From a virus (Duplodnaviria > Heunggongvirae > Uroviricota > Caudoviricetes > Crassvirales), in the IMG/VR virus record IMGVR_UViG_3300037280_000040, positions 20,379 to 84,378 of that record: a stretch of DNA of 64,000 bases. One strand, 5' to 3'. A model generated the notes under the pieces. The model was not told where the DNA came from and searched no databases. It saw only the letters and a program-made list of their open reading frames with translations. The position numbers and the translations under genes are program-made. The number at the start of each line of letters is the position of its first letter. Positions within the stretch are counted from its first letter, which is position 1. Positions 17,122 to 50,814 of this stretch are shown in pieces.

Positions 17122-18411
17122 TTAAATTACATAATTAGAAAGTTCTGTTATAATAGCATTAAGATACTCATTCATAGGAAATTCTTGCAAATAACTTATA
17201 AGAGAAAATGCAGCTATTGCAGCTGTTTTATCTTCATCAAATGAATATAAATTAACATCATCAATATTGAATAAGATAGTTTCAATAAATCCTGAAATAA
17301 AGAAATCAAATGCTTCTTTAGTAGGTAAAATAGCTGTATAAGCTTCTTCCATCCTAGGTATAAAGTTATTTAAATTTATCTTATTATTCTCAGGAACTAA
17401 CATAGACCCCATAACTATTTTTTTAGCTAATAAGTCAGTTAGTTTATCTTGCAATACTGTATCATAAAGTAAAGAGTTATCCTCTTCATCTGTAGCTGTT
17501 TCCTCTTTAGTAGGAACTGTTATTACAGAATCTTTAATCCTTTTGTCTGAAAATTCTTTAATAGGAAATGTTTTAGCAGTAGGAACTTCTCTTACAACAG
17601 GAATCTTAAAATCTCTATTAAAATCCATTTCCTGCATACCTTTAGTAAAGCTATTATTAGGATTATTACCTTGCCAACCTGCTGTACCATTGTACTTATT
17701 AGATTGATATATAGGAGCTCTATAAGCTTCTCTTTTTTTCTTAGCTATTTCATCTAATCTAGCAATAATTTCAGCATTATTATACGCAGGTACATCAATG
17801 ATTACTTTTAATTTAGACCAAATAATTTCTGACTTTTCCTCATCAATTTCAGTTTCTTCAGTATCAGAAATAACACTACCATCAAAAGTTACATATTCAT
17901 ATAACTCTGTTACTTTTGATTTAGATTTAGTTTTAAGAACAGTAGTAACAGCAGCTGTATAAGTACGTCTATTATTTACAATTAATGACACAAAATGATT
18001 ATGACACATTGCTTCTTCTCTCAAAGTATTAGTATCAGTACCACTAAAGAAAGTTTCCATATTATTATGAGAATGGATTAAACCCATACCACAATCTAAT
18101 AGGTCATTTTCTGCCATATATGTAATAATATCAGGTGATTCTGTATACTCTGTATAAGCAGCACTACCAATATCCATAACATAAATATCTTGAGCTAAGA
18201 CATTTAAATTATTTTCTGTAAATGAACCTTCAGTTGTATAAAATAATACTCCTGACCATTCATCTTTATTAATTTTTGAACAAATTAAATCTATTTTGTC
18301 CTGTACCTCTTTTTTAATTGTTAATGAAAAAGGCTTTTGGACTTCCTTGAACCCTATAACTGGTAATTTCTTCTCCTGTATAGGGATGGGTATCTGTGTG
18401 TTTTGTTCCAT
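17122..18411 (-). CDS. JAB/MPN (JAMM) metalloprotease-domain protein with a roughly 290-aa C-terminal extension
   Basis: The JAMM motif is H113-S-H115-x7-S123-x2-D126 (LIHSHNNMETFFSGTD), with HSH encoded at 18067-18075. Glu residues lie upstream in TTEGSF. Confidence 0.65.
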   Translation of the reverse strand: MEQNTQIPIPIQEKKLPVIGFKEVQKPFSLTIKKEVQDKIDLICSKINKDEWSGVLFYTTEGSFTENNLNVLAQDIYVMDIGSAAYTEYTESPDIITYMAENDLLDCGMGLIHSHNNMETFFSGTDTNTLREEAMCHNHFVSLIVNNRRTYTAAVTTVLKTKSKSKVTELYEYVTFDGSVISDTEETEIDEEKSEIIWSKLKVIIDVPAYNNAEIIARLDEIAKKKREAYRAPIYQSNKYNGTAGWQGNNPNNSFTKGMQEMDFNRDFKIPVVREVPTAKTFPIKEFSDKRIKDSVITVPTKEETATDEEDNSLLYDTVLQDKLTDLLAKKIVMGSMLVPENNKINLNNFIPRMEEAYTAILPTKEAFDFFISGFIETILFNIDDVNLYSFDEDKTAAIAAFSLISYLQEFPMNEYLNAIITELSNYVI

Positions 18412-28813: not shown

Positions 28814-29224
28814 TGGTGGAGCTAGAGGGAGTCGAACCCTCGTGTTATCTTAATACTTACTAATAATCTTATATATGCTTAGTATTTACTGTACTTTTTC
28901 AGCTATTTCTAGTAATAGAGTGAAATATTGAAAACTCTAGGACTGTTTGGGACACAAACAGACACCACCATGCAATGAGATTGCAATACTTAATATTCCT
29001 CAGTAAGGAGGCAATATATCTCAAGACTTTTTAAGAAAGTTTAAACTTTTTACAACTTTATTTGATAAGGTTGTTGTCACCCCAGTTCTCTTACGCTACT
29101 AAAGCAAGCTTTGCAGCAGGAACAAAAACAATAGTTTTGCCTGTTATTCTTCTTTGAGTATTTAAAGGACTCCTCCATGCATAAATTACTACTTTTCTTG
29201 AGATAGTCTAAACCAACTAGCCCC
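28814..29224 (-). ncRNA. ssrA: tmRNA-like RNA (ssrA-like), about 411 nt
   Basis: The 5' end, GGGGCUAGUUGGUUUAGACUA, parallels E. coli GGGGCUGAUUCUGGAUUCGAC. The 3' end is GAGGGUUCGACUCCCUCUAGCUCCACCA, with a T-arm, an acceptor stem with a G3:U wobble, and an encoded CCA. A tag-like ORF reads AAUAACAGGCAAAACUAUUG...GCUUUAGUAGCGUAA, giving GKTIVFVPAAKLALVA* from a GGC resume codon or AKLLFLFLLQSLL* from GCA. Confidence 0.55.
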
Positions 29225-31075: not shown

Positions 31076-32743
31076 TTACCTCTTATTAGTTAGGTAACAT
31101 GCATCATTATTTACAATCACAATACCTGCATTAGTACAATGAATAATTGAGTTAGCTGAAGCTACAGAACAATCAAATTCAAGTATTGGATTCATATCTA
31201 ATAATCTAGCAAATTGTATTTTATTATCATAAGGTATTACTGCTAAATCATTATTAAGCACATCAAAGTATTTTAATTCGGTCTCAGAAGCTAAATAAGT
31301 AAGTTTTAGATTTGAGATACTAGCATATTGATAAGTTACCTTCTCATTAGCTATTTCTTCAAGTAAAACTAAGTTTCCTCTTTGAATTATATTCTTAATT
31401 GCTATATCAGCCATTACATAGTTTAAACTATTCTTTTCACAATACATCAATACAGTTTTACCTGATACACTCTGATAAATACTATCTATCTGAGTAAATC
31501 CTCTACCATATACAGAAGTTATAGTATAAGATAATCCTAATAAACTTTTACTTAAATCAAAATTATACAGTTTATCTTCTGTTACTAATACAAGATTAGA
31601 ACCATATAAATCAGCTTTGATTTTAATAGTACTAGGAACACTAGCTATATGTTCTAATTTAGGATAGAGTTGAAGTAAGTTACCATTACTATTGAGACAA
31701 TAAATAGCTTTTTCATATACAAAAAACTTAGGATTTTTAGCAGTTATTTTGTCACTTTTTACAAGAGTAGCAGTACCTTTAAGTGAGGTATCATATATAA
31801 AATACTCACCTCTAACTGTATACAATAATAACAAATCCTTACTAGCAGTTGATTGAATAATCTGAGTACCTACTCCTCCAAACATTGTTCTTACAGTCAT
31901 ATTAGCTGATTGTATATTTACAGGTTGTTTAATTACAGTATTAATAATCATAGTATTAAGACTTATAATAAATCTTTCTCCATTATTAAATACTCTATTA
32001 AATTGATTGAGTAACATATTATCAGAAATAGGCTCATAGCACTTAGGAATTATAATATCAGGAGAATTAGACAATATTGATTCCTTCTTAATCATTCTAT
32101 CTGCTATCTTAGGTATCTTTTTATGCATACCTTTGAATGGGTGTACATAAGTAAGCATATTAAATACCAAAATAGACAAGGCAAAATAATCAGAATTAAT
32201 AGATACATCTCCATTAAATAAAAAGTCCCTAACATCTTCTAATAACACACCTGAATGTTTAAATCCAGGGGTCTGAAAGGAATCAGTATCTATAAAATAC
32301 ACAATTCCATCTCTATTAATTAAGATATTATAAGGATTTAAATCTCCTATAACTACCTGATTGCTATGAGCATATTTAACACCTTGTATTAAAGCTTCAA
32401 TTACTTTTTTCTTTGTATCTAAAGTAATTGATTCTCTATTACAAAACACTTTATTTAATAATGAAACTAAAGGAAAGAAATCACTAGGAATTTTCCTCAT
32501 TGAGAATCCAAGAACATGTTTATTAGCATCATAAAGTAATGATTCAGGCTTGATAAACATGGGATTATCTAATTTGTGTAATTCTAGAAATTTACTTTCA
32601 GCAATAGGTTTAACATTGGGAAGATACAATTTAACCACATGGTTAGCATCCAAATCAAGGACTCTTCCTTCTCCACCTCTTGCAATCTCTTTAGATTCAT
32701 TAATATCATAAAGTAGTTGACCATTCTTATCAAATACTTTCAT
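31076..32743 (-). CDS. Eukaryotic-like Ser/Thr protein kinase with a C-terminal domain of about 280 aa and unknown fold
   Basis: The Gly-rich loop is IARGGEGRV, followed by the VVKL lysine. The catalytic loop is HSNQVVIGDLNPYNILI and the DFG-like motif is FIDTDSF. Confidence 0.6.
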   Translation of the reverse strand: MKVFDKNGQLLYDINESKEIARGGEGRVLDLDANHVVKLYLPNVKPIAESKFLELHKLDNPMFIKPESLLYDANKHVLGFSMRKIPSDFFPLVSLLNKVFCNRESITLDTKKKVIEALIQGVKYAHSNQVVIGDLNPYNILINRDGIVYFIDTDSFQTPGFKHSGVLLEDVRDFLFNGDVSINSDYFALSILVFNMLTYVHPFKGMHKKIPKIADRMIKKESILSNSPDIIIPKCYEPISDNMLLNQFNRVFNNGERFIISLNTMIINTVIKQPVNIQSANMTVRTMFGGVGTQIIQSTASKDLLLLYTVRGEYFIYDTSLKGTATLVKSDKITAKNPKFFVYEKAIYCLNSNGNLLQLYPKLEHIASVPSTIKIKADLYGSNLVLVTEDKLYNFDLSKSLLGLSYTITSVYGRGFTQIDSIYQSVSGKTVLMYCEKNSLNYVMADIAIKNIIQRGNLVLLEEIANEKVTYQYASISNLKLTYLASETELKYFDVLNNDLAVIPYDNKIQFARLLDMNPILEFDCSVASANSIIHCTNAGIVIVNNDACYLTNKR

Positions 32744-33461
32744 CAGTTGGCTCTTTTATGAATCTAACAATACTAATATCATCAAAATTAATATAACCTT
32801 TTTTTCTAAAAATGTTATACTTTCTTGATAACATAGCATCTGACCCTATTAAACTTCTATCATTTAAGAATGTATCAATTGCTAATGCTGTAGCATCTTC
32901 TTTAAGTGCATTTCTAAATGAACAGATACCATCACTACAGATACTTACATCTTTTTTAAATGTAAATGAATGTAGATTAGTATGTTTAGCCATTACTAGT
33001 GTAGGATTCTTATCTAAGTAGTAAGCCATATAATCAGGAGCATTATCTTTAGATTCAAGAATTATTAATTCATCATCCACTTTTATTACTCCATCACCTG
33101 AGCTAAGAATTAAAACTTCATCACCTCTAATAATACAAATTATCATAGTTGATACTAATTCTAATTCTTTTAAATCTAATAAATGTTGTACTTCTTTAAA
33201 TCCATCAAATATATCATGAAATAGTATATTCATAATAAAATGAAGATTTAAATCAGCTACATTCTTAAAATTATTACAGGAATGTTTTAATACTTTAACT
33301 AATAGAGAAGAAGCAAAATGAGAATCCATACCGGTGGAGCAACCATCAAAGATTGCTCCAATGTATAAAGGTTCTTTTGCATCTTGAACTCTAAAGAATA
33401 AGGAATCCTCACAATAAGTGAGATGGTCATCTCCTTTTTTAACAAGAGTTCTAACTTCCAT
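32730..33461 (-). CDS. PP2C-family Ser/Thr phosphatase
   Basis: GAIFDGCSTG matches the (V)FDGHGG metal-binding motif. ILSSGDGV matches the GDSR-like motif. Confidence 0.55.
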   Translation of the reverse strand: MEVRTLVKKGDDHLTYCEDSLFFRVQDAKEPLYIGAIFDGCSTGMDSHFASSLLVKVLKHSCNNFKNVADLNLHFIMNILFHDIFDGFKEVQHLLDLKELELVSTMIICIIRGDEVLILSSGDGVIKVDDELIILESKDNAPDYMAYYLDKNPTLVMAKHTNLHSFTFKKDVSICSDGICSFRNALKEDATALAIDTFLNDRSLIGSDAMLSRKYNIFRKKGYINFDDISIVRFIKEPTDESI

Positions 33462-34144
33462 TAGAAAGTTACATCTAAAGGATTAGCACCACTACTTGAT
33501 TTAGAGATAGAAGAAGAAATGAAATTAATCATTTTTCTTATCTCAGCACCAGTATTACCTACTTTAGCCAAATGTTGAATACCCATTAACTTTTGAGCTC
33601 TCTCAAAAGAAGAATCATCTCCTACTCCAAATAAGATTGAAGTAAAAGAAAAGGCACTTGCTTCATTTTTAGCAATATCATCAAGAGTAGTTTTAACAGC
33701 ATCAGCTGCACCTCTCTGTGATGAATTATCTTCACCATCAGTAATTACAAATACTAATGTTTTAACATTAATACCAGTATTTTCAAGGTTCTCTCTGTAC
33801 TCAATAGCATTTTTAATACCTTGAGCCACTGCATCATATAAAGCTGTACCATGACCTGATGGAGTAAATTGAATAGTTGGTACTCCAATAATAGGTTGGA
33901 ATCCACTTCTTACTTTAACTTTATCATGGAATTCTACAATAGAAACAAATAATCTATCATGAATATGACTTTGTTGCATAGTTTGAATAAAATCATTGAA
34001 GGCATTATTCAAGTCACTAGAATATGGGTATATTGATGGAGAAATATCCACAATGAATACAGCATTAATAGTTTCTTCTACTTGAATTTGCTCTGGGTCA
34101 AAATTATTAAAATCCAGAGATAAGTCTAAATCATTAAAATCCAT
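33461..34144 (-). CDS. von Willebrand factor A (vWA) domain protein with a MIDAS motif
   Basis: The MIDAS is FIVDISPSI (DxSxS), then TALYDAV, then VFVITDGEDN. Confidence 0.6.
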   Translation of the reverse strand: MDFNDLDLSLDFNNFDPEQIQVEETINAVFIVDISPSIYPYSSDLNNAFNDFIQTMQQSHIHDRLFVSIVEFHDKVKVRSGFQPIIGVPTIQFTPSGHGTALYDAVAQGIKNAIEYRENLENTGINVKTLVFVITDGEDNSSQRGAADAVKTTLDDIAKNEASAFSFTSILFGVGDDSSFERAQKLMGIQHLAKVGNTGAEIRKMINFISSSISKSSSGANPLDVTF

Positions 34145-34149
34145 GATAG

Positions 34150-34938
34150 TTACAGTTTAATATTGGTTGATATTTCAAATTTAATTCCCATAGCTTGAGC
34201 ATCTGCATAAATACTATCAGCCATATGTTCAAATCCTGTTACAGGACTCATACAGTCAGTTAAGATTATAAATTTCTTAGCTAACTCAGGAAATTGCATG
34301 GCTTGTTTAAGAGTATTAGCCACACAATGAGATTGTGCTTCTCCTGCAAAGTAAATAACATCAAATGTTTCCAGCTTTTGTAACAAAGCTTGATTCAATT
34401 GAGTCTCAGGATGTCCTGCTACTGGAATATTTGCTCTGAATGCACCAAAGTGTTCAGTTAAGGGATAAGTTCCTTTTGCTACTACTTGATAGAAAGATTT
34501 TGTTTCTCTAGCCCAAGCTGTAACAGCATCCATAATAGGCTCAACAAAAGAAGCTCCTTTAGTTCCAATAACACAATGCTCAGCCCAAATACAATGAGGG
34601 AATTCTCCTTGTTTCTCAAGTTCCTCAATATACTTAGTAGCTTCATTAGGCACAAATCTTGGACTCCATTTACCATCTAACACATCTTGATATGTTATGA
34701 TTGTAAAAATAGGTGGGAAATTACCATCTTTATCTGTCCAAAATCCTGGGTGAGCAATATCTAATACTTGGTGACTGTCCATAGTCATACCAATGTAATT
34801 AATGCTGTTTTTATTTTTAGTAATAAATTCAGCTAGTCTCAACATGTCTTTATCTGCATTATCTACAAATAATGATCCTTTTGGGTCACAAAAGTCAAAT
34901 TGAGCATCTATAATTAAAAGAGCTATTTTTTTATACAT
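34150..34938 (-). CDS. Isochorismatase-family cysteine hydrolase, nicotinamidase (PncA)-like
   Basis: IALLIIDAQFDFCDPKGSLFV matches PncA ALLLVDLQNDFC..G.L.V. A candidate catalytic Cys lies in FAGEAQSHCV. Confidence 0.55.
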   Translation of the reverse strand: MYKKIALLIIDAQFDFCDPKGSLFVDNADKDMLRLAEFITKNKNSINYIGMTMDSHQVLDIAHPGFWTDKDGNFPPIFTIITYQDVLDGKWSPRFVPNEATKYIEELEKQGEFPHCIWAEHCVIGTKGASFVEPIMDAVTAWARETKSFYQVVAKGTYPLTEHFGAFRANIPVAGHPETQLNQALLQKLETFDVIYFAGEAQSHCVANTLKQAMQFPELAKKFIILTDCMSPVTGFEHMADSIYADAQAMGIKFEISTNIKL

Positions 34939-34962: not shown

Positions 34963-35295
34963 TTAAATCTTTTTAGTGAGAAATGTAATAATTTTACCTG
35001 CTTTATATACAATATTCTTATCATCAGTATAATACTGAATTATTAGATTTATAATAAAAGCTAATGACATAATAATATTAATAAAAGGAATAAAGAATGT
35101 TATTCCCATTACTATATATACAATTAATGGATATTTTACTCTTTCAGTAGCTACTGAATCTTCAATTAATTCTAATTTATTAGAGTAAAATCCAGTATTT
35201 TTTCTAAAACAATCTTCAGTATATCTATAAGATTGTTTTAGCATATTGTATAATAGAATATACAATATTAAAGCTATGATATATCCTATCCACAT
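34963..35295 (-). CDS. Small membrane protein
   Basis: Two hydrophobic segments. Confidence 0.35.
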   Translation of the reverse strand: MWIGYIIALILYILLYNMLKQSYRYTEDCFRKNTGFYSNKLELIEDSVATERVKYPLIVYIVMGITFFIPFINIIMSLAFIINLIIQYYTDDKNIVYKAGKIITFLTKKI

Positions 35296-35299
35296 AGTA

Positions 35300-36154
35300 C
35301 TACTTAATTAATAGTCCACCATTAACTCCATAAGTAGTAGGATATTTACCATCCCATACTTTTAATCTTTGTAATTCTACAAGAGCAGGAGTTAAAGATT
35401 TTGATACTTTCTGATTATAATATTCTTCTGCATCTGCTTCAATTTTTCTTGCATCTGCACGTCCTTTTGCTTCAGCTATAGCTATATTGGCATGAGCTGT
35501 TGCAAGAGCAACTTTATTCTCTTCCTTTTGAGCATCTTGAGTCATTGCAACTTTAGCATCTAAAGCATCTTTTATAGATTTAGGTATTCTTACTGAACCA
35601 ATTAGATATATATTATCAATTAATATACCATCATTCTTAAGATTAGCTGTTACAACCTTTTTAACTGAATCAATTAATAATCCTTTACCAGCACCATACA
35701 CTGATTCAACAGGCATATTACCACTAATTCTATTCAATGCATCTCTTACTGTATTCCTTAATACTATACTTCTTATTTCTTCAACTTGTTTATGATAGGT
35801 AGTATACATATGAGGTAATTTATCAAAATCAAAATGCATAGCTATTCCTAAATCAACTGCACATTCCATTCCTTCTTTTGTTTGAAATGTAAATTCTTCA
35901 TTGTCTTTAGAACCTTCAGTTGAACTGGCAGTAAATGTATAATTAACCTTAAAGGTAGGGAAATCATAGTAGTTTTGACCCCATGATTCAAAATAATTAC
36001 CTGGTCCAACTGCTTTAGGTTGTACTCCTTTATTATCACCATACTTTTCAAGAATAACTGAAGCTGAGCCTATCTCAGTTCTGTGCATACAACTTGTGAG
36101 AGTCATAGTCAAAGCTACCATAAGTAGCATAGAAAAAATCTTTAATCCTTTCAT
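35300..36154 (-). CDS. Lipoprotein with an SPFH/Band-7 (HflK/C-like) domain
   Basis: Signal plus lipobox MLLMVALTMTLTSCM. The C-terminus has an Ala/Glu-rich coiled coil, ALATAHANIAIAEAKGRADARKIEADAEE, typical of SPFH proteins. Confidence 0.5.
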   Translation of the reverse strand: MKGLKIFSMLLMVALTMTLTSCMHRTEIGSASVILEKYGDNKGVQPKAVGPGNYFESWGQNYYDFPTFKVNYTFTASSTEGSKDNEEFTFQTKEGMECAVDLGIAMHFDFDKLPHMYTTYHKQVEEIRSIVLRNTVRDALNRISGNMPVESVYGAGKGLLIDSVKKVVTANLKNDGILIDNIYLIGSVRIPKSIKDALDAKVAMTQDAQKEENKVALATAHANIAIAEAKGRADARKIEADAEEYYNQKVSKSLTPALVELQRLKVWDGKYPTTYGVNGGLLIK

Positions 36155-38585: not shown

Positions 38586-38625
38586 AATGTTCTTAAGTAC
38601 TAAGATTAATAATTTATTTAATTGT

Positions 38626-38698
38626 GATTCAGAAGGGATTCAAACCCTTGACCCCTACCTTAGAAGGGTAGTGCTCTATTCAGCTGAGCTACTGAACC
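38626..38698 (-). tRNA. tRNA-Arg (anticodon UCU)
   Basis: Manual fold: acceptor GGUUCAG/CUGAAUC, D stem GCUC/GAGC, anticodon stem CUACC/GGUAG with loop CUUCUAA, T arm AAGGG-UUUGAAU-CCCUU. Confidence 0.7.
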
Positions 38699-40218: not shown

Positions 40219-41437
40219 CTTGATTAATAGTTTTTTAATGGTTTAATTCTCAACTATTAATATAGATTAGTTGAGATAGTTTAATAATAATGTTTCATTT
40301 TTCTTGAATTATAGTGAATAATTAGTAAAAAAGAATTAGACAGGTAAATAAAAAATAAACTATAACTAGTCCAATAGAGTGTGTTAATACATCTTTATTT
40401 AGACTTAGTTATAGAATTATACTATCAAATAACTGATGTTTATAATTTTTAATTGGTTTGTTCTTGCTTATCAGGTTCATAATAAACCTTAGCAGGATGA
40501 GTTAATTGGATATCTAATACTTTAGTAAATAAATAGAAAAATCCTATTATAACTACTAAAGCAATGATTAATCCAGTTACTTTTACATGGATAACTTTGA
40601 TTGTTTTCATTAGGACTATTGATTATTGATTGTTGATTAAAAATAAAATAACTCTCTTACTTGACCTGACTATCCTAAGTTATCAAAGATTAACTAGTAT
40701 TCCTAATAGGGCTTTCTGTTGTCTTTCAGAGAGTTAAAAAATAATCTTAAACTATGGGTTGTATGCATTCTTTATCTCGTAGGCTTTACTTGCATAATAT
40801 CAACTCTGACGTTTCTCAGCTTTTAGAGTCCATAATTTAAGATTAAGGGATTGTAATATAAATAAACAAGGCTCTTTACAATCTCAACAATAGTTAAGTT
40901 CTGCAAGTCTTATACAATTATTCATTGCCTTTAAATAGGATTAAACTTATTATATTCAGGGCTGTAATGTGACACCTGCTTGTTTAAAATTTACTACACT
41001 TATTACCACTATTATTTTCAAATGGCTGTATAGTTGATTTATATCTAGAGAGTATTCTAGTTATATTTCATTGGCTATTTAATATAATAAAGAGCTATTT
41101 AAACCCAAACAATACTCGTTTGTAGCTGAATACTCTCTAATATATTTTTTACTATTACTTAATCACTACCATCTAATCCTGGGTAGTCATAATCTTGTGA
41201 ACAATCATCTAAATCACCATCAAGGTCATCTAAATCTCTTTTTCTATAAGCCATAATGGTTAAATTAAGATATTATTGTATCACAATTTTGTTGATTGGC
41301 AAATTTAATTGCTCTAGCTAATGACCTACTAGCACCTTTATTTTTATTAGGTGCTAGTACATCTTCAAATTTATCAGTTTTATTGTTTTTACGTTTGGAC
41401 TGTTTAACTGTACTTACTCTATGAATGGTCATAATAT

Positions 41438-41749
41438 TTACTTTATTAGTTCATTAACATTATAATCAGTAAAGAAGTGTTTCATGATTGTACCTCTACC
41501 TGAGTAGGCAAAGATACTATCATTACTTTCTACAATAATAGTGTAAGACCTTGTATCTATATTACATATTTGGTCTATTATTCTCACAGAATCTTTAAAT
41601 GAATTAAGATTCTCAATAAATTGAGTATCACTAATTAGTTCTAACTCAGGACTTGTGTTAATACTAGTATCTCTTTTGTAATTCTCAGGAGTACATGAAG
41701 TTATTACTATACTTAGTATAATAATAATAAATAAGATAGTTCTTTTCAT
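41438..41749 (-). CDS. Small lipoprotein
   Basis: Signal plus lipobox ILSIVITSCTP. Confidence 0.4.
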   Translation of the reverse strand: MKRTILFIIIILSIVITSCTPENYKRDTSINTSPELELISDTQFIENLNSFKDSVRIIDQICNIDTRSYTIIVESNDSIFAYSGRGTIMKHFFTDYNVNELIK

Positions 41750-42151
41750 TGTGTTTGTATGTGTAATTGTTGATTAATTAAAGAATTTAACTTCTCCAGT
41801 AGGATATGCAATGCATATTCTATTGCTATTAATACGTGTTTTCATTGTGTTTAATGTGTTTATTAATGTATTATTGATTATTGTATGTTAAGTTATAACA
41901 GTAAATACTGTTAAGTAATAATAAATGTATGTATTTGTTCTATATGTTGCTATCAGGCAATAAATAGTGGGTTGTTTATAGACATCAGATTATCAACACA
42001 TTAGCTACATAAATCTAAAGTAATACTGTAGGTATGACCAATGTTAGAGATTTATTATTAAGGGTAATGTATAACTTTAACAATGTGAGTTCTATCAATG
42101 TAACAATGTGAAATGTATTAATGTATCAATGATTTAATGTTACTCTTAACA

Positions 42152-42182
42152 ATAAAAAAAAGAACAGGAGATTGCTCTCCTG
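42152..42182 (-). terminator. Intrinsic terminator downstream of gene 42202-42507
   Basis: GC-rich hairpin caggaga-ttgc-tctcctg. On the minus strand it is followed by UCUUUUUUUU. Confidence 0.6.
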
Positions 42183-42201
42183 CTCTTAGTTTAGAATTTG
42201 C

Positions 42202-42507
42202 TTAGAATTCTGCCAATACAGCAGCATTGGTGTTTTCACCTAATTGGTGTAACATAAAGAATACACCACTTGGATTCCTTTCAGTTGGGTCACCTGTAAC
42301 TTCAGATACAACTGGTTTGTCCATTGCAGCTAATGTACCAACTTTTTTGATACTGACTGAACCAACTACTTGGTTAAGGTCATTTAGCATACTTAAAGAA
42401 CCTGCATTAAGTTCTTTCACTTTGATAACTTTTGTTCCAATAGAAGCTTTGAAGTCTTCTACACTCATAGTCTTATTAAAGACTAGAGGATTTGCATGTT
42501 CTGTCAT
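42202..42507 (-). CDS. Hypothetical protein (101 aa). It is the first gene of the minus-strand block and has its own terminator.
   Basis: ORF adjacent to the divergent control region and followed by a strong terminator. Confidence 0.45.
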   Translation of the reverse strand: MTEHANPLVFNKTMSVEDFKASIGTKVIKVKELNAGSLSMLNDLNQVVGSVSIKKVGTLAAMDKPVVSEVTGDPTERNPSGVFFMLHQLGENTNAAVLAEF

Positions 42508-42866
42508 AATGAATGTTGTTTAAAGAATGTAAATAATAAATGTTGATTAAATGAAATTTGCCAAATTTGAATGTCCCAGAGGGGGATATACCCAAGTGGC
42601 TAAGAGGTGGGGAGAGTCTGGATAGTTTATATATCACTTGTATAAAAATTTATAATTTTCAAAATTTTAGAGTATACATCACTTGCATAAACTTTTTTTA
42701 TTTCAAAAAAAAAATTAGAATTTTTAAATTTTGAATATTCAGACTAGTTAGTATAATAGGTACATAGAAAGAAGAAGTAAAAAAGGAGTGTACTCAAAGT
42801 CTTGAAATATAGATAGATATATTTATTAAAACTTATTAACTTTTATTGTGTTGTGTATGTCAATTA

Positions 42867-42885
42867 TTTTACTTATCTTTGTTGC
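42867..42885 (+). promoter_or_regulatory. Bacteroidetes-type promoter -7 box (TAtcTTTG at 42874-42881) inside the conserved TTTTACTTATCTTTGT motif
   Basis: The same extended motif recurs before six further plus-strand transcription units. Confidence 0.5.
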
Positions 42886-43586
42886 ATCTGATTAGAGTAT
42901 TACTTTCTAATATCATCCAATCTTATATAAATAAGAAGAAATGTAAGTATTGGATTAGAAGTTGGGTTGTAAGTATACAAATATAGTATATTGAGATGTC
43001 CCCAATACAGATAAAAATGACTTATATATAAGTAAATTTCAGACACCCAAGTAATTGAGAAAAGGTAAAGGTAAAGTCTGTTGAGGGATAAAAGTAGAAA
43101 TACTTTAAGACGTGGTTTATGAAGTTATAAGTTTATAAGGACTCTCAGCAATGAGAAGTTTTTTAGTCATTAACAATTTGGCTAGGACTTCTTATATCAA
43201 TAATTAAATAAATAGAAATATTAAAAACAAATAAGGAATAGAACTTAATAGGGGATTGGGGATTGTTGTATGGCAAAGAAAACTCCATTTAAAGCCTTAT
43301 TAAAGTTTATAAATTTGTAAATAAATAAATATTAATAGTATGAAATTAAAAGTAATGAACTTTAAGATTAAACTAGATATGTTTATGGTTAAATATAATA
43401 ATAATATTATTACAAGTATTATTGCTATGTTGCCATTACTATATCTATTATTTTTACTGTAGGAGAAGGAGATAAATACATAAGAATCAAGGTCTAGGAA
43501 GATAGAAAAAATTAAATATAGTTTATTTTTATCTTCTTAATCAAGTTATATGCTTAGAAATTTTATAAAAGATTTGGTAATCTCAA

Positions 43587-44123: not shown

Positions 44124-44194
44124 AGTTTCCTAGTGTAATGGTAGCACAAGAGTCTTTGGTCCTCTTAGTTAAAGTTCAAATCTTTAGGAGACTA
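44124..44194 (+). tRNA. tRNA-Gln (anticodon UUG)
   Basis: Manual fold: acceptor AGUUUCC/GGAGACU, D stem GUG/CAC, anticodon loop CUUUGGU, T arm UAAAG-UUCAAAU-CUUUA. Confidence 0.55.
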
Positions 44195-44203
44195 CAATAA
44201 TAT

Positions 44204-44275
44204 GCCTTTATAGTGTAATGAATAGCACACGATTCTTCTAAGATTATAGTATAGGTTTGAATCCTATTAGGGGTA
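44204..44275 (+). tRNA. tRNA-like, probably tRNA-Arg (UCU), with a weak anticodon stem
   Basis: Acceptor GCCUUUA/UAGGGGU is wobble-rich. The T arm is AUAGG-UUUGAAU-CCUAU. The anticodon loop is CUUCUAA, but only 4 of 5 stem pairs form. Confidence 0.4.
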
Positions 44276-44290
44276 CAATAATTAATAAAT

Positions 44291-44557
44291 ATGATACAAA
44301 GAGTTCCTGTATTGAGAGAATGTTCTTATAAAGAATATAATGATAACATAGATAAACATCCTGATGAATATCTTAGATTATTTGTAGTTGATAGTAATAC
44401 TGAAAGTACTGAGGATATTACAAAAGAGGTTGATGATAATATTGATGCAATAGGTAATACTGATAAGAATAAGTTTTACAAAGTATTAGGATTAGTTAGT
44501 TCTCAAGAGTTAGAAAAAGATATACAACAAACACAACAAAGTAGTTTGTTGAATTAA
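44291..44557 (+). CDS. Hypothetical acidic protein
   Basis: ORF. Confidence 0.35.
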   Translation: MIQRVPVLRECSYKEYNDNIDKHPDEYLRLFVVDSNTESTEDITKEVDDNIDAIGNTDKNKFYKVLGLVSSQELEKDIQQTQQSSLLN

Positions 44558-44718
44558 ATCATAAATGTTTTTAATAAAGTTGATTTAGCTATACTTAGTC
44601 TGTGAAGATAGAGATAGCACAAAAATATAGATATAGTTCAGTTGCTAGAATGCTTGGTTTGGGACCAAGAGGTCAAGAGTTGGAGTCTCTTTATCTATAC
44701 AATTTATTTTAGAATTAA

Positions 44719-44932
44719 AATGGAAGAAGAAAAGAAAACATTAGAACCTTATCAACTAAGAGTTATTGATGAGTTTAAAGATATTGATTTTAAAGTAAGA
44801 AAGATAGAGAAATTTATATTAACTGATGTATATAAAAATTTATCTAAATCAGAACAAAGTATGATAGACTTACAGGTTATGTATATGACTGGTTATTATA
44901 AAGTTTTAATGGAAAGAATAAATAGATTTTAA
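44719..44932 (+). CDS. Hypothetical small protein. The start was moved to the internal MEEEKKT.
   Basis: ORF. The upstream part of the listed ORF is unlikely to be coding. Confidence 0.35.
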
Positions 44933-44935
44933 TAA

Positions 44936-45009
44936 GGGGTCTTAGCTCAATTGGCTAGAGCGATTGCTTTGCAAGCAATAGGTAGTGGGTTCAATCCCCA
45001 CAGATTCCA
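44936..45009 (+). tRNA. tRNA-Ala (anticodon UGC)
   Basis: Acceptor GGGGUCU/AGAUUCC with G3:U70. D stem GCUC/GAGC. Anticodon stem AUUGC/GCAAU with loop UUUGCAA. T arm GUGGG-UUCAAUC-CCCAC. Confidence 0.75.
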
Positions 45010-45014
45010 CATAT

Positions 45015-45088
45015 GTTCTAATAGCTCAATTGGTTAGAGCTTTTGACTGTTAATCAAAGGGTTGTAGGTTCAAGTCCTACTTAGAACG
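45015..45088 (+). tRNA. tRNA-Asn (anticodon GUU)
   Basis: Acceptor GUUCUAA/UUAGAAC. Anticodon stem UUUGA/UCAAA with loop CUGUUAA. T arm GUAGG-UUCAAGU-CCUAC. Confidence 0.75.
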
Positions 45089-45111
45089 CAGTATTAATTT
45101 AATTAAAAACA

Positions 45112-45414
45112 ATGGCACAAATTGAAGTAATGTTAGAGATTATAGATGATGTAATTCCTTTATATCCTGATTTAGTATCAAAAGATTATAAAGAAACTAT
45201 CATATATGATTATAAAAATTTATTAGATACTAAAGAATCTCTATATAAATATAGAGAAATAGTAAGAGAATTAGAAGTAGCTTTAAAAGAAAGAGAATAT
45301 AAATTTAATAAACAATCTCAATTTTTTAATATTGTTTATAAGACTGAAATTAAACAAGGAGTTGATAAACCTGAATATGCTGATACTATGCATGTAAAGG
45401 GAAAAGTATATTAA
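45112..45414 (+). CDS. Hypothetical protein
   Basis: ORF. Confidence 0.4.
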   Translation: MAQIEVMLEIIDDVIPLYPDLVSKDYKETIIYDYKNLLDTKESLYKYREIVRELEVALKEREYKFNKQSQFFNIVYKTEIKQGVDKPEYADTMHVKGKVY

Positions 45415-45415
45415 T

Positions 45416-45643
45416 ATGACTTGGGAAGAAGCTTACTTAGAGATGGAGAAAGGTAATATTATTACCACTCCTAATAGTCCTAATTATTGTTTACTATATG
45501 CTCCTAATCATATATTAGTATTTTGTGAACCTGATAGATTATATCATATTAGTAGTAATAAAAGAATTAAAGAAGTTACTGATTATATAGTTGATAATAC
45601 TAAGAGAGATATTATTAATAATTTAGTAATAAAACTAAAATAG
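45416..45643 (+). CDS. Hypothetical small protein
   Basis: ORF 2 nt after the previous stop. Confidence 0.35.
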   Translation: MTWEEAYLEMEKGNIITTPNSPNYCLLYAPNHILVFCEPDRLYHISSNKRIKEVTDYIVDNTKRDIINNLVIKLK

Positions 45644-45677
45644 TTTATTTTTATCTTCCTACTCAATTTTAAAGCGT

Positions 45678-45938
45678 ATGAATAGATACTTTATAGTTAA
45701 TCCAAATCTTTATATATCTAAAGATAAATACATAGTAAGACTAACTGAATACAATATTGATACTCATATCTTTAAAGGAACTAAGATTAGTTGGATTACA
45801 AATGATGAGGATGGTAAAATAGAAGATATTAGAATAGAAGATATTGAATTGGATGATAATAAATTATCAATATTTAAAGAAATAAATAAAAGAATTTTTT
45901 ATAAGATATTATTAGTACTATTAAAGAATTCTTATTAA
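45678..45938 (+). CDS. Hypothetical small protein
   Basis: ORF. Confidence 0.35.
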   Translation: MNRYFIVNPNLYISKDKYIVRLTEYNIDTHIFKGTKISWITNDEDGKIEDIRIEDIELDDNKLSIFKEINKRIFYKILLVLLKNSY

Positions 45939-45956
45939 CCTTAAAAACTTAATAAA

Positions 45957-46397
45957 ATGGACAATTTTGATTTAGATTTAAGTCTAAGACCTAAGGGTGG
46001 TAGTGGTAATACTAGTGGTACTAGTACTTTTAAAGATTTTATATGTAAACTTGAAAGTTATAAAACTAAATTTAAGAATTTACATTGGGGAGCTATGAAT
46101 GATACTTTACATTTAAGAGTAGACCAATTCTTAGATGAGTTAACTGACTTCCAAGATGAATTATCTGAGACAGGGCAAGGTATTATAGGATTCCAATTTG
46201 GACCTAATGATATAGTTACTACTCACTTAAATTATACTGACCCAATAGTAGCTTTAACTACTCTTAAAGATAAAACATTAGCATTTCATAAAAGTATTAA
46301 TTCTAATCCTGAATTAATTGGTTTAGTAAATTCTGTAGAAGGATTTATGACTATAGTAGGAAAATTCTTATATTTATTTAGAATAGCTGCTAAGTAA
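45957..46397 (+). CDS. Hypothetical protein (146 aa)
   Basis: ORF. Confidence 0.4.
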   Translation: MDNFDLDLSLRPKGGSGNTSGTSTFKDFICKLESYKTKFKNLHWGAMNDTLHLRVDQFLDELTDFQDELSETGQGIIGFQFGPNDIVTTHLNYTDPIVALTTLKDKTLAFHKSINSNPELIGLVNSVEGFMTIVGKFLYLFRIAAK

Positions 46398-46406
46398 TTA
46401 GTCTAA

Positions 46407-46479
46407 GGACCAGTAGCTCAGTTGGTAGAGCACCTGACTCATAATCAGTAAGTCCCAAGTTCAATCCTTGGATGGTCCA
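46407..46479 (+). tRNA. tRNA with a CAU anticodon, Met or Ile2-lysidine type
   Basis: Acceptor GGACCAG/AUGGUCC with a G7·A66 mismatch. D stem GCUC/GAGC. Anticodon loop CUCAUAA. T arm CCAAG-UUCAAUC-CUUGG. Confidence 0.55.
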
Positions 46480-46480
46480 C

Positions 46481-46553
46481 TGTGTGGAAAGCTCTTATGG
46501 TGAGAGTGCCAAATTGTGGATTTGGAGGGAGGGTTCGAGTCCCTACTACACCC
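46481..46553 (+). tRNA. tRNA-like, probably tRNA-His (GUG). The acceptor/D-stem junction is irregular.
   Basis: Clean anticodon arm CCAAA-UUGUGGA-UUUGG. T loop UUCGAGU. Discriminator C, as in tRNA-His. Three A residues separate the acceptor and D stems. Confidence 0.4.
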
Positions 46554-46558
46554 TTAAT

Positions 46559-46631
46559 GGAAATATGGCAGACATGATGTATGCACTAGTTTGAAGCACT
46601 AGCTAAGGGAGTTTGAGTCTCTCTGTTTCCA
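46559..46631 (+). tRNA. tRNA-Phe (anticodon GAA)
   Basis: Acceptor GGAAAUA/UGUUUCC. Anticodon stem CUAGU/ACUAG with loop UUGAAGC. T arm GGGAG-UUUGAGU-CUCUC. Confidence 0.55.
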
Positions 46632-46692
46632 CAATATTAGTTAATACTTAAAACTTTAACAATAATAATTAGGTCATGTAGTTTATTTTACT

Positions 46693-46700
46693 TACCTTTG
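46693..46700 (+). promoter_or_regulatory. Promoter -7 box TAccTTTG inside TTTTACTTACCTTTGT, upstream of gene 46724
   Basis: Motif family match. Confidence 0.45.
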
Positions 46701-46723
46701 TATCAACAAATAAAAAATAAAGT

Positions 46724-47092
46724 ATGAGTGTAGTTTTATTAAATAGTTTGAATGCTGATAGAGATTTTATTTTAAATCTTAATGGTATTTTTAATAATGG
46801 AAAAATTATAGATAAAAAATTATTTTTTCATTCTGAAATTTATATATATTCTAATTCTACAGTAGAAGGAGTAGTAATGTATGTACCTACTAATGAGGTT
46901 TTTCTTAGAATTAAAGTAACTTATCCTACCCAAAATATTGCTAATAAGAGTGCATGGATTATGACTAGTAACTTAGAAGAAGAATTATTAAGACAAATAT
47001 TATTTGCTAAAGAAACTAATAATACTATAACTGATACTAAAGGTAATATTATTAAAACATTTGCTGATTATAAAAAAGAAATAATGCCTTGA
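46724..47092 (+). CDS. Hypothetical protein
   Basis: ORF behind the promoter motif. Confidence 0.4.
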   Translation: MSVVLLNSLNADRDFILNLNGIFNNGKIIDKKLFFHSEIYIYSNSTVEGVVMYVPTNEVFLRIKVTYPTQNIANKSAWIMTSNLEEELLRQILFAKETNNTITDTKGNIIKTFADYKKEIMP

Positions 47093-47171
47093 TGGTGGAA
47101 TTGGTAGACACGCAGGACTTAAAATCCTGTGAGCAGTAATGCTCGTATGGGTTCAAGTCCCATTCAAGGTA
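47086..47171 (+). tRNA. tRNA-Leu (anticodon UAA), type II with a long variable arm
   Basis: Acceptor GCCUUGA/UCAAGGU. Anticodon stem CAGGA/UCCUG with loop CUUAAAA. Variable-arm hairpin GAGC-AGUAAU-GCUC. T arm AUGGG-UUCAAGU-CCCAU. Confidence 0.75.
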
Positions 47172-47254
47172 CAATTATTTAGTTTCTAACAAAGTGGATG
47201 GAAGTTAGAATTAAGTGGAGACATGTAATATTCCAACTAAATAATTTTTAAAAT

Positions 47255-47326
47255 GCCAAATAAACTTTGATGATGAAGCCCACTCTTGTAAAGTGGTTTA
47301 ACTAGGTTTGAGTCCTAGATTTGGCT
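47255..47326 (+). tRNA. tRNA-Thr (anticodon UGU) with an atypical D arm
   Basis: Perfect acceptor GCCAAAU/AUUUGGC. Anticodon stem CCACU/AGUGG with loop CUUGUAA. T arm CUAGG-UUUGAGU-CCUAG. The D stem pairs poorly. Confidence 0.5.
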
Positions 47327-47337
47327 CAAAAAAAAAT

Positions 47338-47411
47338 AGCGGGTTAGAGCAGTCAGGTAGCTCAACAGACTCATAATCTGTAGGTCACTGGTTCAAATCC
47401 AGTACCCGCCA
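47338..47411 (+). tRNA. Second CAU-anticodon tRNA, with an A1·C72 mismatch
   Basis: Acceptor AGCGGGU/ACCCGCC. D stem GAGC/GCUC. Anticodon stem ACAGA/UCUGU with loop CUCAUAA. T arm ACUGG-UUCAAAU-CCAGU. Confidence 0.6.
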
Positions 47412-47434
47412 CTAAATACTTTAAATATATAAAT

Positions 47435-50515: not shown

Positions 50516-50814
50516 TGGCTAATATAAAATATACATTAAGAGTAGAGGATTTAGCAATAGCTTTAAATAATCTTACTGGAAGTAAAGGACTTTATGTTAT
50601 TAAAAGAAACATAGAAAAGAATGAACTCTTTGGAGCTATTAAAATCTTTACTATTGAACTATTATACAAAGAAATAGGTAAAGAAATAGTATCAGTATTA
50701 AGAAGTATTAGAAGTAATAAATGTACTACTGATGTAGAAGAATTAAATAACTGGAATGAAGTAAGTATTGAGTTTACAAAAGAAGTATTAAACTATATAA
50801 AATGGAAGAAATAA
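50515..50814 (+). CDS. Hypothetical protein
   Basis: ORF with ATGA overlap. Confidence 0.35.
   Translation: MANIKYTLRVEDLAIALNNLTGSKGLYVIKRNIEKNELFGAIKIFTIELLYKEIGKEIVSVLRSIRSNKCTTDVEELNNWNEVSIEFTKEVLNYIKWKK

Follow-up and report, generated by a model that had tools for sequence, protein, structure and literature searches.

A Predicted Nicotinamidase Heading a Conserved VWA-PP2C-Kinase Operon in a crAss-like Phage

A crAss-like gut phage was found to encode a protein of 262 aa that is classified as a nicotinamidase by every in silico test. Its gene heads a conserved operon and is followed by genes for a VWA-domain protein, a PP2C-family phosphatase and a Ser/Thr kinase with a C-terminal beta-propeller. 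The protein is predicted to be an active, metal-dependent enzyme that feeds NAD+ salvage from the head of this operon, and this reading as a whole is considered fairly probable. The in silico evidence covers the identity of the enzyme, the integrity of its active site, the structure of the operon, the linkage of its genes and their embedding in NAD+ clusters. The original prediction, which had proposed a PncA-like nicotinamidase with a possible role against NAD+-depleting defenses, is partly supported. The DNA analyzed here (the window) is a stretch of 64 kb from a genome of ~100 kb, and the genes concerned are as follows.

31076..32743, minus strand: Hanks-type Ser/Thr kinase with a 7-bladed beta-propeller (Pfam Pkinase and RIO1)
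32730..33461, minus strand: PP2C-family Ser/Thr phosphatase, 243 aa (Pfam PP2C_2, 34.8 bits)
33461..34144, minus strand: VWA-domain protein, 227 aa (Pfam VWA, 26.7 bits)
34150..34938, minus strand: PncA-like nicotinamidase, ATG-initiated ORF of 262 aa
34963..35295, minus strand: two-helix membrane protein, 110 aa, upstream of pncA with a gap of 24 bp
35300..36154, minus strand: SPFH/Band-7 lipoprotein (Band_7, 57.6 bits; phrog_200), after a further gap of 4 bp

Sequence and Structure of the Nicotinamidase

The peptide IALLIIDAQFDFCDPKGSL corresponds to residues 5-23 of the PncA-like protein. The peptide is real, and so is its alignment with the strand that bears the catalytic Asp in yeast Pnc1 and in the PncA proteins of M. 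tuberculosis and P. horikoshii, although the initial description of this N-terminal motif as a strong match was overstated: the protein scores 18.8 bits against Pfam Isochorismatase (PF00857), below the cutoff of 27, and 36.1 bits against the NCBIfam PncA equivalog (NF008623), below the cutoff of 174. Judged by its sequence, it represents a divergent nicotinamidase subfamily.

The catalytic triad is Asp11-Lys155-Cys205, and its three residues, whose verification the original prediction had called for, are all present. In a residue-by-residue alignment, D11/K155/C205 pair with D8/K122/C167 of yeast Pnc1. The metal ligands are Asp54, His56, His63 and His121, and D54/H56/H121 pair with D51/H53/H94 of Pnc1 and with D49/H51/H71 of M. 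tuberculosis PncA, in which H57 takes the position of H63. A201 lies within the G-x-A-x-x-x-C segment ahead of C205. The triad and the four metal ligands are kept down to ~31% identity among homologs. Conservation of D11, K155 and C205 is at least 97% in 67 homologs, with invariance also seen in a 40-member set, and the metal ligands are invariant in both family sets (40 and 67 members).

When the family was turned into a profile, yeast Pnc1 was matched with an E-value of 5e-17, and all 12 of the 12 profile matches in PDB are nicotinamidases. The AF2 model (pLDDT 96.6) shows an isochorismatase-like alpha/beta fold, to which solved nicotinamidases are the nearest structures; every Foldseek match from rank 1 to rank 13 is a nicotinamidase (E = 3.5e-15 to 7e-10), and characterized nicotinamidases rank ahead of BiuH, CSHase, RutB and NicF. 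Because the family profile and the structure both point to a nicotinamidase, the doubt raised by the weak Pfam and NCBIfam scores is removed. The assignment as a PncA-type nicotinamidase thus holds, with an invariant triad Cys, an intact metal site and agreement of profile and structure, and the protein groups with nicotinamidases and not with other amidases of the superfamily. Neither of the two observations that the original prediction had named as contradicting it, a missing triad Cys or clustering with isochorismatases of unrelated specificity, was thus made.

The solved PncA/Pnc1 proteins (yeast 2h0r/3v8e, A. baumannii 2wta, M. tuberculosis 3pl1, P. horikoshii 1ilw) share with the phage protein the same fold, the Asp-Lys-Cys triad, the Asp-His-His(-His) metal site and the active-site segment G-x-A-x-x-x-C-V, whereas the identity to them is only 14-22%. 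At 262 aa, the phage protein also exceeds these enzymes in length (180-216 aa), and a longer conserved insertion separates its metal motifs. The insertion amounts to ~25 aa when compared with Pnc1, and its residues H63, W67, G72, T79, G89, W91 and Y103 are invariant.

The metal site is the feature that sets nicotinamidases apart from the rest of the isochorismatase-like hydrolase superfamily. In published nicotinamidase structures, it holds the unsubstituted nitrogen of the pyridine ring, which is blocked in ribosylated nucleotides. Hydrolysis of a signaling nucleotide, an alternative raised in the original prediction, is therefore unlikely. More generally, the enzyme might act on another substrate, for example a small amide or a nucleotide-derived signal, with a coincidental or regulatory NAD+ context. 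The superfamily is catalytically diverse, as reflected by BiuH, RutB, NicF and CSHase among the Foldseek matches, the sequence falls under the cutoffs of the curated PncA models, and the insertion contains invariant residues. This reading is nevertheless regarded as very improbable, since the Asp-His-His(-His) metal site is kept and invariant, the nearest structures and the sole profile matches are nicotinamidases, and the gene is found in the pncA position beside pncB.

Megablast of 10 kb around pncA against 50,697 deposited phages yielded no match, and the nicotinamidase gene was present in none of 85 deposited crAss-like genomes. Gene fusions were considered as a clue to partners (Rosetta stone), but the long family members (P0290, P0241, P0313 and others) carried no recognizable added domain or were tandem duplications.

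Operon Structure and Conservation of the Cassette

The genes of the operon are arranged in the order of PncA, MIDAS-type VWA, PP2C and kinase-propeller. The VWA gene starts 5 bp past the pncA stop, and the next two junctions are overlaps, of 1 bp between the VWA and PP2C genes and of 14 bp between the PP2C and kinase genes. The kinase-phosphatase island noted originally (PP2C at 32730-33461 and kinase at 31076-32743) is real. The nicotinamidase beside it is not lone, as had been described; the VWA gene at 33461-34144, which lies between the nicotinamidase and the island, had been overlooked, and PncA, VWA, PP2C and kinase constitute one conserved cassette.

Conservation was assessed in 48 dereplicated PncA-seeded phage clusters, with partners counted within 8 kb. 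PP2C was found in 41 of the 48 and the kinase in 40, and VWA, PP2C and kinase were all present in 40/48. In most PncA-seeded phage loci, VWA is the next gene after PncA, and seen from the other side, PncA is directly upstream of VWA for all 44 of 44 strong VWA relatives. The cassette proteins diverge in step (Spearman 0.73-0.86 over 62 loci), which shared genome history alone could also yield. PP2C and the kinase are evolving much faster than PncA.

The association is not universal. The partner triad is missing near ten homologs from Dyadobacter, Persicitalea and Bacteroidia, and one large group of huge phages from the gut lacks it as well; a bacterial NAD operon without the triad still contains a kinase remnant. 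Since some bacterial and huge-phage homologs lack it, the nicotinamidase does not need the VWA-PP2C-kinase triad. The sequence comparison of PncA proteins linked and unlinked to VWA revealed only S55/T as a distinguishing residue and no interface signature.

All three partners retain their catalytic or MIDAS residues. The VWA protein has an intact MIDAS motif (D33, S35, S37, T100 and D136, conserved in the alignment) and a conserved C-terminal tail, Ser-rich at residues 206-218, whose final residue is Phe. In PP2C, the metal-binding Asp motifs D19, D39-G40, D123-G124, D177-G178 and D227-D228 are conserved among 35 homologs. The kinase domain (aa 1-264) includes a GGEG loop, K38, D134..N139 and D152-x-D154, with invariant catalytic residues, and is followed by a disordered linker and the C-terminal 7-bladed beta-propeller (aa 280-555). 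The AF2 model of this protein has a pLDDT of 90.5, and its Foldseek matches are protein kinases and the propellers of Hsv2, Vps18, WDR33 and G-beta.

The two genes upstream of pncA (34963..36154) are probably co-transcribed with the cassette and are outside its core. Both are kept in the sister contig L002, while the SPFH gene is close to the cassette in only 4 of the 48 PncA-seeded clusters. When the operon was scanned for promoters and terminators, there were fewer sigma-70-like matches than in shuffled sequence, with models that do not cover Bacteroidota promoters. Repeated elements are observed upstream in the loci L001 and L022; they are AT-rich, and their degeneracy is too high for an informative NrtR operator search in the phage, whose genome is 27% GC. 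A tmRNA call by ARAGORN was also discarded after Rfam gave no confirmation.

No publication was found in which a nicotinamidase is connected to TerY-P or to the combination of VWA, PP2C and kinase. In the phage family, a dedicated VWA gene usually comes next and PP2C and the kinase accompany it, while no such report was found for characterized nicotinamidases.

NAD+ Salvage Context

The family members from Bacteroidota fill the pncA slot in NrtR-PncB-X-NadE(-Nudt9) operons, and like classical pncA, they adjoin pncB under NrtR. The NrtR-PncB-PncA-NadE arrangement corresponds to the canonical 'salvage I' regulon of NrtR (PMC2330246). In several huge phages, the triad genes are interspersed with genes for PncB, a NadD-like enzyme, NadE and NrtR; the NadD-like gene is CTP_transf_like (NadD/NMNAT-type), and the phage NrtR is a true NrtR. 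About one fifth of the related phage loci contain PncB, the NadD-like gene and/or NadE in the same cluster. Because of this gene context with NrtR, PncB and NadE neighbors in bacteria and phages, a role of the phage nicotinamidase in NAD+ salvage is well supported, and the link to NAD+ salvage made in the original prediction gains strong support.

The PncB- or NadE-like partners that the original prediction had suggested looking for elsewhere in the genome are absent from the window, although relatives have them. No PncB, NadD, NadE, Nampt, NMNAT or PnuC was found in the 64 kb. Tblastn of the window (E ≤ 5), seeded with PncB, both types of NadE, NrtR, Nudt9 and Nudix, returned noise only, and Pfam scans of 61 further ORFs of the window detected no NAD family. 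Within the window, the phage thus has the first salvage enzyme alone, short of an enzyme set sufficient to rebuild NAD+.

The occurrence of PncA without downstream enzymes in the window also fits a different function, the clearance of nicotinamide instead of NAD+ resynthesis. Clearance could relieve nicotinamide-inhibited NAD+ consumers of phage or host, such as sirtuins, ADP-ribosyltransferases and Tpt1. Yeast Pnc1 controls Sir2 by removing nicotinamide, and genes for Tpt1, ADP-ribosylglycohydrolase (ARH) and NADAR are recurrent neighbors of the cassette in relatives. Clearance could alternatively starve competing phages, as inter-phage competition, by depriving the Namat of NARP1 or the Nampt of NARP2 of substrate; NARP1 (Adps and Namat) and NARP2 (Nampt and Nmnat) both use up nicotinamide, according to PMC13464706. 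Against clearance, the PncB, NadD-like and/or NadE genes in ~1/5 of the related phage loci and the placement of bacterial members in salvage operons indicate flux into NAD+, and clearance as the main function is considered unlikely.

Comparison with TerY-P Triads

The cassette and TerY-P share the same three domain types, the same order of VWA, PP2C and kinase, and tight operon packing; adjacent genes for VWA, PP2C and a Ser/Thr kinase characterize TerY-P, and in the window they are adjacent or overlapping. TerY-P triads are reportedly described in Anantharaman 2012 and are also associated with CoCoNuT systems. The cassette and TerY-P differ at the kinase C-terminus. In TerY-P, it is a zinc ribbon in the CoCoNuT/Ter type and an OB fold in the defense type of Gao 2020, whereas residues 280-555 of the window kinase form a 7-bladed beta-propeller with no Cys-rich ribbon. 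The assignment of the cassette to TerY-P was ruled out by this domain. The gene contexts differ as well: the triad of the cassette is tied to NAD+ salvage genes, and TerY-P to Ter, McrBC or restriction genes.

The TerY-P triad, composed of a TerY-like VWA protein, PP2C and a Ser/Thr kinase, has been hypothesized to be a phosphorylation switch (PMC11090510), and variants of it serve as stand-alone antiphage systems, as the same article states with reference to Gao 2020. By analogy, the cassette might be a phage-borne defense or exclusion system, in which the triad is the sensor and switch, the PncA-like enzyme is the effector or an accessory, and the infected cell is shielded from other mobile elements. 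Besides the shared architecture, the rapid evolution of PP2C and the kinase and the weak, generic similarity of the kinase to PD-T4-6, MAD6 and MkoA in PADLOC are compatible with it. PADLOC, however, gave no defense-system assignment for PncA, VWA or PP2C, the only trace being a marginal PglX match of VWA (E = 0.0019), and NCBIfam contained no TerY-type match for VWA or PP2C. The propeller in place of a zinc ribbon or OB fold, and the embedding in NrtR/PncB/NadE operons of bacteria and phages, which is a metabolic and not a defense-island context, further argue against it. A defense or exclusion function is thus held to be quite unlikely.

Discussion

In the favored reading, that of a nicotinamidase feeding NAD+ salvage, PncA would hydrolyze nicotinamide, yielding nicotinate and ammonia, and thereby open the Preiss-Handler (deamidated) route of NAD+ salvage. 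The phage itself would contribute no more than this entry enzyme and the proteins that partner it. Since the window holds no other NAD gene, the route would depend on host enzymes, with the later steps performed by PncB, NadD and NadE of the Bacteroidota host, the presence of which is assumed. In many larger phages, the same cassette is combined with phage-encoded PncB, NadD-like enzyme and NadE, and with NrtR, a regulator that senses ADP-ribose. The gain for the phage would be the recycling of nicotinamide towards NAD+, and the nicotinamide could originate from NAD+-cleaving defenses of the host or from NAD+-consuming enzymes. A cost is also conceivable, in that nicotinamide clearance could relieve the product inhibition of host NADases and harm the phage.

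As for the partners, we infer that the VWA protein acts directly and physically with the nicotinamidase. The kinase/PP2C pair would set the phosphorylation state of the VWA protein, probably on its Ser-rich tail, and this putative phospho-switch would regulate the nicotinamidase: the beta-propeller may sense something, and the response of the kinase and PP2C may gate salvage.

NAD+ depletion is among the commonest anti-phage strategies of bacteria. Since 2024, three NAD+-rebuilding pathways of phages have been reported, and a nicotinamidase is part of none: NARP1, NARP2 and NARP3 (PnuC and NadR-like). They resemble the present case as phage-encoded rebuilding of NAD+, and two of the three start from nicotinamide. 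The chemistry is different, as the cassette would follow the deamidated Preiss-Handler route via nicotinate, and none of the three descriptions includes a nicotinamidase or a module of kinase, phosphatase and VWA. The cassette of related phages is comparable to the NARPs as a complete pathway cluster (PncA, PncB, NadD-like and NadE), sometimes with NrtR, whereas the window phage has the first enzyme alone, and a NARP-like anti-defense function is putative here. The countermeasure against Thoeris, DSR and SIR2 envisaged in the original prediction may be its purpose.

A PncA-like gene is known in the mega phage G (gp275; PMC12484599), and pncB-nadD-nadE clusters are known in jumbo phages (PMC11662467). 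These reports are annotations only and leave the VWA, PP2C and kinase partners unmentioned, and in contrast to those mega and jumbo phages, the present example is a crAss-like phage of ~100 kb.

A broader interpretation can be offered tentatively. PncA, VWA, PP2C and the propeller kinase may be the regulated core of a fourth, Preiss-Handler-based kind of NAD+ reconstitution by phages, common among huge phages and found in crAss-like phages too. The propeller would sense NAD+ breakdown or host defense, the phospho-switch would act through VWA to turn on recycling, and the same module would control salvage in some Bacteroidota. If true, this would be the first known nicotinamidase under the control of a dedicated kinase, phosphatase and VWA protein.

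The evidence points to phage salvage of NAD+ by a deamidated route, which some large phages encode in full and which brings its own signaling hardware. It suggests that phages regulate NAD+ recycling rather than only boosting this recycling. It also gives the TerY-P-like triad of VWA, PP2C and kinase a concrete metabolic partner, where the mechanism of TerY-P has so far only been hypothesized. Since its carriers include crAss-like phages of gut Bacteroidota, the module may affect the turnover of nicotinamide and nicotinate in the gut microbiome.

A Predicted Nicotinamidase of a crAss-like Phage

The peptide quoted in the original prediction corresponds to residues 5–23 of the following open reading frame (ORF):

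34150–34938, minus strand, PncA-like nicotinamidase ORF with ATG start, 262 aa

It had been called a strong match to the isochorismatase/nicotinamidase motif, which overstates the curated sequence models: Pfam Isochorismatase gives 18.8 bits versus a gathering score of 27, and the NCBIfam nicotinamidase equivalog 36 bits versus a cutoff of 174. The identity as a PncA-like nicotinamidase was borne out by the catalytic triad, the metal ligands, the AlphaFold2 model, and Foldseek and profile matches. A direct PDB sequence search with the protein matched nicotinamidases only, with yeast Pnc1 at the top (E = 1.3e-8). Relatives numbered 900, mostly of ~262 aa, in a search of 5.8 billion proteins, and searching all representatives clustered at 50% identity exhaustively gave 601 clusters at E ≤ 1e-30.

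D11, K155, C205, D54, H56, H121, and A201 are invariant in a 40-sequence alignment and, together with H63, at least 97% conserved among 67 sequences reaching down to ~31% identity. The triad Cys, whose absence had been considered a sign against the assignment, is thus present as C205.

Residue correspondences counted along HMMER alignments (window protein; yeast Pnc1; M. tuberculosis PncA)
D11; D8; D8
K155; K122; not mapped
C205; C167; not mapped
D54; D51; D49
H56; H53; H51
H121; H94; H71

In the published structures, the aligned Pnc1 and PncA positions are the catalytic triad and metal ligands. H63 lies seven residues past H56, matching the place of His57, the fourth metal ligand of M. tuberculosis PncA.

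The AlphaFold2 model has a pLDDT of 96.6 and a pTM of 0.92. In a Foldseek search of the PDB with this model, biochemically characterised nicotinamidases take the first 13 ranks, while biuret hydrolase, N-carbamoylsarcosine amidase, RutB, NicF, and maleamate amidase appear at lower ranks. The family profile retrieved 12 PDB sequences at E ≤ 1e-3, all nicotinamidase or pyrazinamidase, and clustering with isochorismatases of unrelated specificity was not seen in either search. The window protein is therefore predicted in silico to be a catalytically intact nicotinamidase. N-ribosylated nucleotides are unlikely to be substrates, since in nicotinamidases it is the unsubstituted ring nitrogen of nicotinamide that the metal site binds.

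A Conserved Four-Gene Cassette

The gene was originally described as a lone nicotinamidase beside a kinase-phosphatase island; instead, it forms an operon with VWA, PP2C, and kinase genes that is conserved in relatives. The intergenic gaps in the window are +5, −1, and −14 bp.

34938–34150, minus strand, PncA-like
34144–33461, minus strand, VWA
33461–32730, minus strand, PP2C
32743–31076, minus strand, kinase

Phage contigs with all four genes in this order (identity to window PncA/VWA/PP2C/kinase)
100 kb sister contig: 85/85/67/70%
148 kb phage contig: 65/75/45/42%
462 kb huge phage LR756500: 57/54/36/36%

With the PncA alignment, 80 IMG/VR loci were fetched, their neighbours were scored by HMMs built from the cassette, and dereplication at 90% identity left 48 PncA-seeded phage clusters. 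VWA is present in 42 of these, PP2C in 41, and the kinase in 40; all three lie within 8 kb in 40/48. In 32 scored clusters, the VWA gene lies downstream of PncA at a distance of no more than 150 bp, and the window, with its minus-strand cassette, is the 33rd. Reciprocally, the VWA alignment as a seed gave 48 loci. Each of the 44 strong VWA matches has PncA directly upstream; the other four matches are weak, and three of these are on giant-virus bins. The linkage is thus strongly conserved. Across 62 loci, the pairwise divergences of these proteins show a strong correlation (Spearman 0.73–0.86, Mantel p = 0.001), which indicates co-inheritance and not interaction, because shared genome history contributes to it. 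Mean identity is 43% for PncA, the slowest to evolve, 33% for VWA, 27% for the kinase, and 25% for PP2C.

Directly upstream of the cassette, 34963–36154 (minus strand) encodes a two-helix membrane protein of 110 aa and a lipoprotein of the SPFH/Band-7 type, as in the sister contig; SPFH is near the cassette in only 4/48 clusters. A separate group of 31 near-identical IMG/VR loci (L073–L103) comes from gut huge phages with contigs of mostly 120–400 kb. Their PncA is shorter (253 aa, 34% identical) and directly follows an NH3-type NadE, and HMM scoring of the neighbours found no VWA, PP2C, or kinase.

Partner Proteins and Comparison with TerY-P

The three partners are predicted to be catalytically intact. 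In the VWA protein, the MIDAS signature D33, S37, T100, and D136 is invariant, and the conserved C-terminal tail is Ser-rich with a terminal Phe. PP2C retains all metal-binding Asp motifs, and the kinase retains the Gly-rich loop, K38, D134..N139, and D152-x-D154. The kinase model (pLDDT 90.5) consists of a kinase domain (1–264), a disordered linker, and an all-beta domain (280–555) that matched 7-bladed propellers in a structure search.

VWA, PP2C, and kinase show the same architecture as the TerY-P triad, which was proposed as a phosphorylation switch (PMC11090510). TerY-P kinases carry a zinc ribbon or OB fold, whereas the cassette kinase carries a beta-propeller. The window VWA matched generic VWA domains only and no TerY model, and PADLOC did not recognise the cassette proteins as TerY-P. 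Membership was rejected on the kinase C-terminus and the PADLOC result; by analogy, the cassette may work like the TerY-P triad.

NAD+ Genes around the Cassette

Several huge phages have the triad genes interspersed with further genes of the Preiss-Handler route.

Gene orders in huge-phage loci
L066, L069/L135, L139: PncA, VWA, PncB, NadE, PP2C, kinase
L123, L132, L141: PncB, (NadE), PncA, VWA, PP2C, kinase, (NadE)
L071: VWA, PP2C, PncA, kinase, PncB, NadE
L120–L122: NadE, PncA, VWA ... PP2C, kinase, NrtR

All neighbouring ORFs were clustered label-free in a pooled set of 75 dereplicated phage loci, which is partly VWA-seeded and therefore biased towards cassette presence.

Recurrent neighbours ranking after the four cassette genes (of 75 loci)
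NadE: 16
PncB: about 13
NrtR or other Nudix: 10, among them true NrtR (Nudix plus NrtR_WHD domains)
CTP_transf_like nucleotidyltransferase, NadD/NMNAT type: two ORF clusters, 10 and 5
Tpt1/KptA: 7
RlaP: 6
ADP-ribosylglycohydrolase: 5
NADAR: 5
RNA ligase: 5

By this list, NAD+ and ADP-ribose biology dominates the phage neighbourhood. In huge phages, the cassette lies among genes for Tpt1/KptA RNA 2'-phosphotransferase, ADP-ribosylglycohydrolase, NADAR, RNA ligase, and RlaP (island genes at L025 3597–4121, L031 10810–11592, L051 12327–12872, L069 2420–3793, and L032 14757–16010). As judged from gene content, these surroundings amount to an NAD+/ADP-ribose and RNA-repair island.

A look for NadE-like or nicotinate phosphoribosyltransferase partners elsewhere in the genome had been suggested. 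PncB, NadE, NrtR, Nudt9, Nampt, NMNAT/NadD, PnuC, and Nudix were not found in the 64 kb window, beyond which about a third of the genome lies. With no further salvage gene in the window, the phage would depend on host enzymes past the first step.

Bacterial Relatives

The proposed link to NAD+ holds in bacterial NrtR-PncB-NadE operons as well as in the phage loci with PncB, NadE, and NrtR. A Prolixibacteraceae MAG carries the operon NrtR, PncB, X, a 76 aa ORF, NadE, and a Nudt9-type Nudix, where X is 61% identical to the window protein, and a 6.7 Mb bacterial contig has the order NrtR, PncB, X, VWA, PP2C, kinase, NadE. The nrtR-pncA-pncB cluster is the canonical NrtR "salvage I" regulon, and NrtR is released from DNA by ADP-ribose (PMC2330246). 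The family thus fills the pncA slot. The 76 aa ORF (L022 8058–8288 and L023 6585–6815) is what remains of the C-terminal end of the kinase (51% identity, E = 7e-19), so the triad was once in the Prolixibacteraceae operon and has since been lost. A Sphingobacteriales genome encodes the PncA-VWA pair only, and in ten genomes of Dyadobacter, Persicitalea, and Bacteroidia the gene occurs without the triad.

The Phage Genome

The window belongs to a crAss-like (Crassvirales) phage, with ~27% GC and 11 tRNA genes.

62393–63883, ORF matching the Crassvirus major capsid model (660 bits)
50802–53171, terminase
53272–55686, portal
4841–6724, family A DNA polymerase

The capsid is 65–70% identical to those of gut crAss-like phages, among them cr111_1, cr108_1, and the PhiCrAssBcn phages that infect Bacteroides intestinalis, and the host is thus presumably a member of Bacteroidota. 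None of 85 deposited crAss-like phages encodes the PncA-like protein or the neighbouring kinase, and in this lineage the nicotinamidase gene is therefore an accessory acquisition. In the deposited-phage collection, three uncultured huge phages matched both the PncA-like protein and the kinase; the PncA-like protein also matched a faecal fragment of 6.5 kb.

At ~41000–43000, gene orientation and the sign of GC skew both switch, and a minus-strand replication/accessory block diverges from a plus-strand tRNA/structural block. Just past the switch is a ten-tRNA array (44124–47412, plus strand: Gln, Arg, Pro, Ala, Asn, Met, His, Phe, Leu, Met); the eleventh, tRNA-Arg(TCT), is on the opposite strand (38624–38698, minus). 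ARAGORN predicted a tmRNA at 28814–29224 (minus) with the tag peptide GKTIVFVPAAKLALVA; an Rfam scan at gathering threshold found just the 11 tRNAs and no tmRNA there, and this is a doubtful call or a very divergent gene. A ThiF/E1-like ORF (16098–17108, minus), to which a ThiF match (E = 1.8e-16) of an unlabelled ORF in a batch Pfam scan was assigned by its GVGGIG motif, adjoins an ORF that weakly matches a prokaryotic JAB domain (17122–18411), and the two may form a pair for ubiquitin-like conjugation or deconjugation. Three separate ORFs at ~8.0–13.3 kb (minus), including 8014–9153, match the ribonucleotide reductase large-subunit barrel, and a LAGLIDADG endonuclease ORF is in the same region, which suggests an RNR gene split by a homing endonuclease or intein.

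Proposed Function and Novelty

The cassette is embedded in salvage clusters in silico. The nicotinamidase would channel nicotinamide into NAD+ resynthesis during infection. The near-obligate adjacency, including the bacterial PncA-VWA pair without a kinase, suggests that the VWA protein works directly with the enzyme or on it, and the phosphorylation state of VWA may be toggled by the kinase and PP2C in response to a propeller ligand. Apart from S55/T, no PncA residues separating VWA-linked from unlinked enzymes were found; such coupling would therefore leave no trace in the enzyme sequence. Nicotinamide and ADP-ribose are products of host NADases, and the ADP-ribose sensor NrtR is present in some relatives; an anti-defence purpose is thus plausible.

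A phage nicotinamidase as such is not new, since a PncA-like gene is annotated in phage G (PMC12484599) and a jumbo-phage study describes a pncB-nadD-nadE cluster and also mentions phage-encoded pncA (PMC11662467). Three pathways by which phages rebuild NAD+ have been described experimentally: NARP1 with Adps and Namat, NARP2 with Nampt and Nmnat, and NARP3 with PnuC and a NadR-like enzyme. Unlike the cassette, they involve neither a nicotinamidase nor a signalling module. The linkage with VWA, PP2C, and kinase is not mentioned in a viral NAD+/ADP-ribose survey (PMC9503650), the NrtR regulon paper (PMC2330246), or the results of full-text literature searches. Coupling of the enzyme that opens NAD+ salvage to a VWA, PP2C, and propeller-kinase module of its own is apparently undescribed, and the significance therefore lies in this conserved linkage and not in the enzyme itself.
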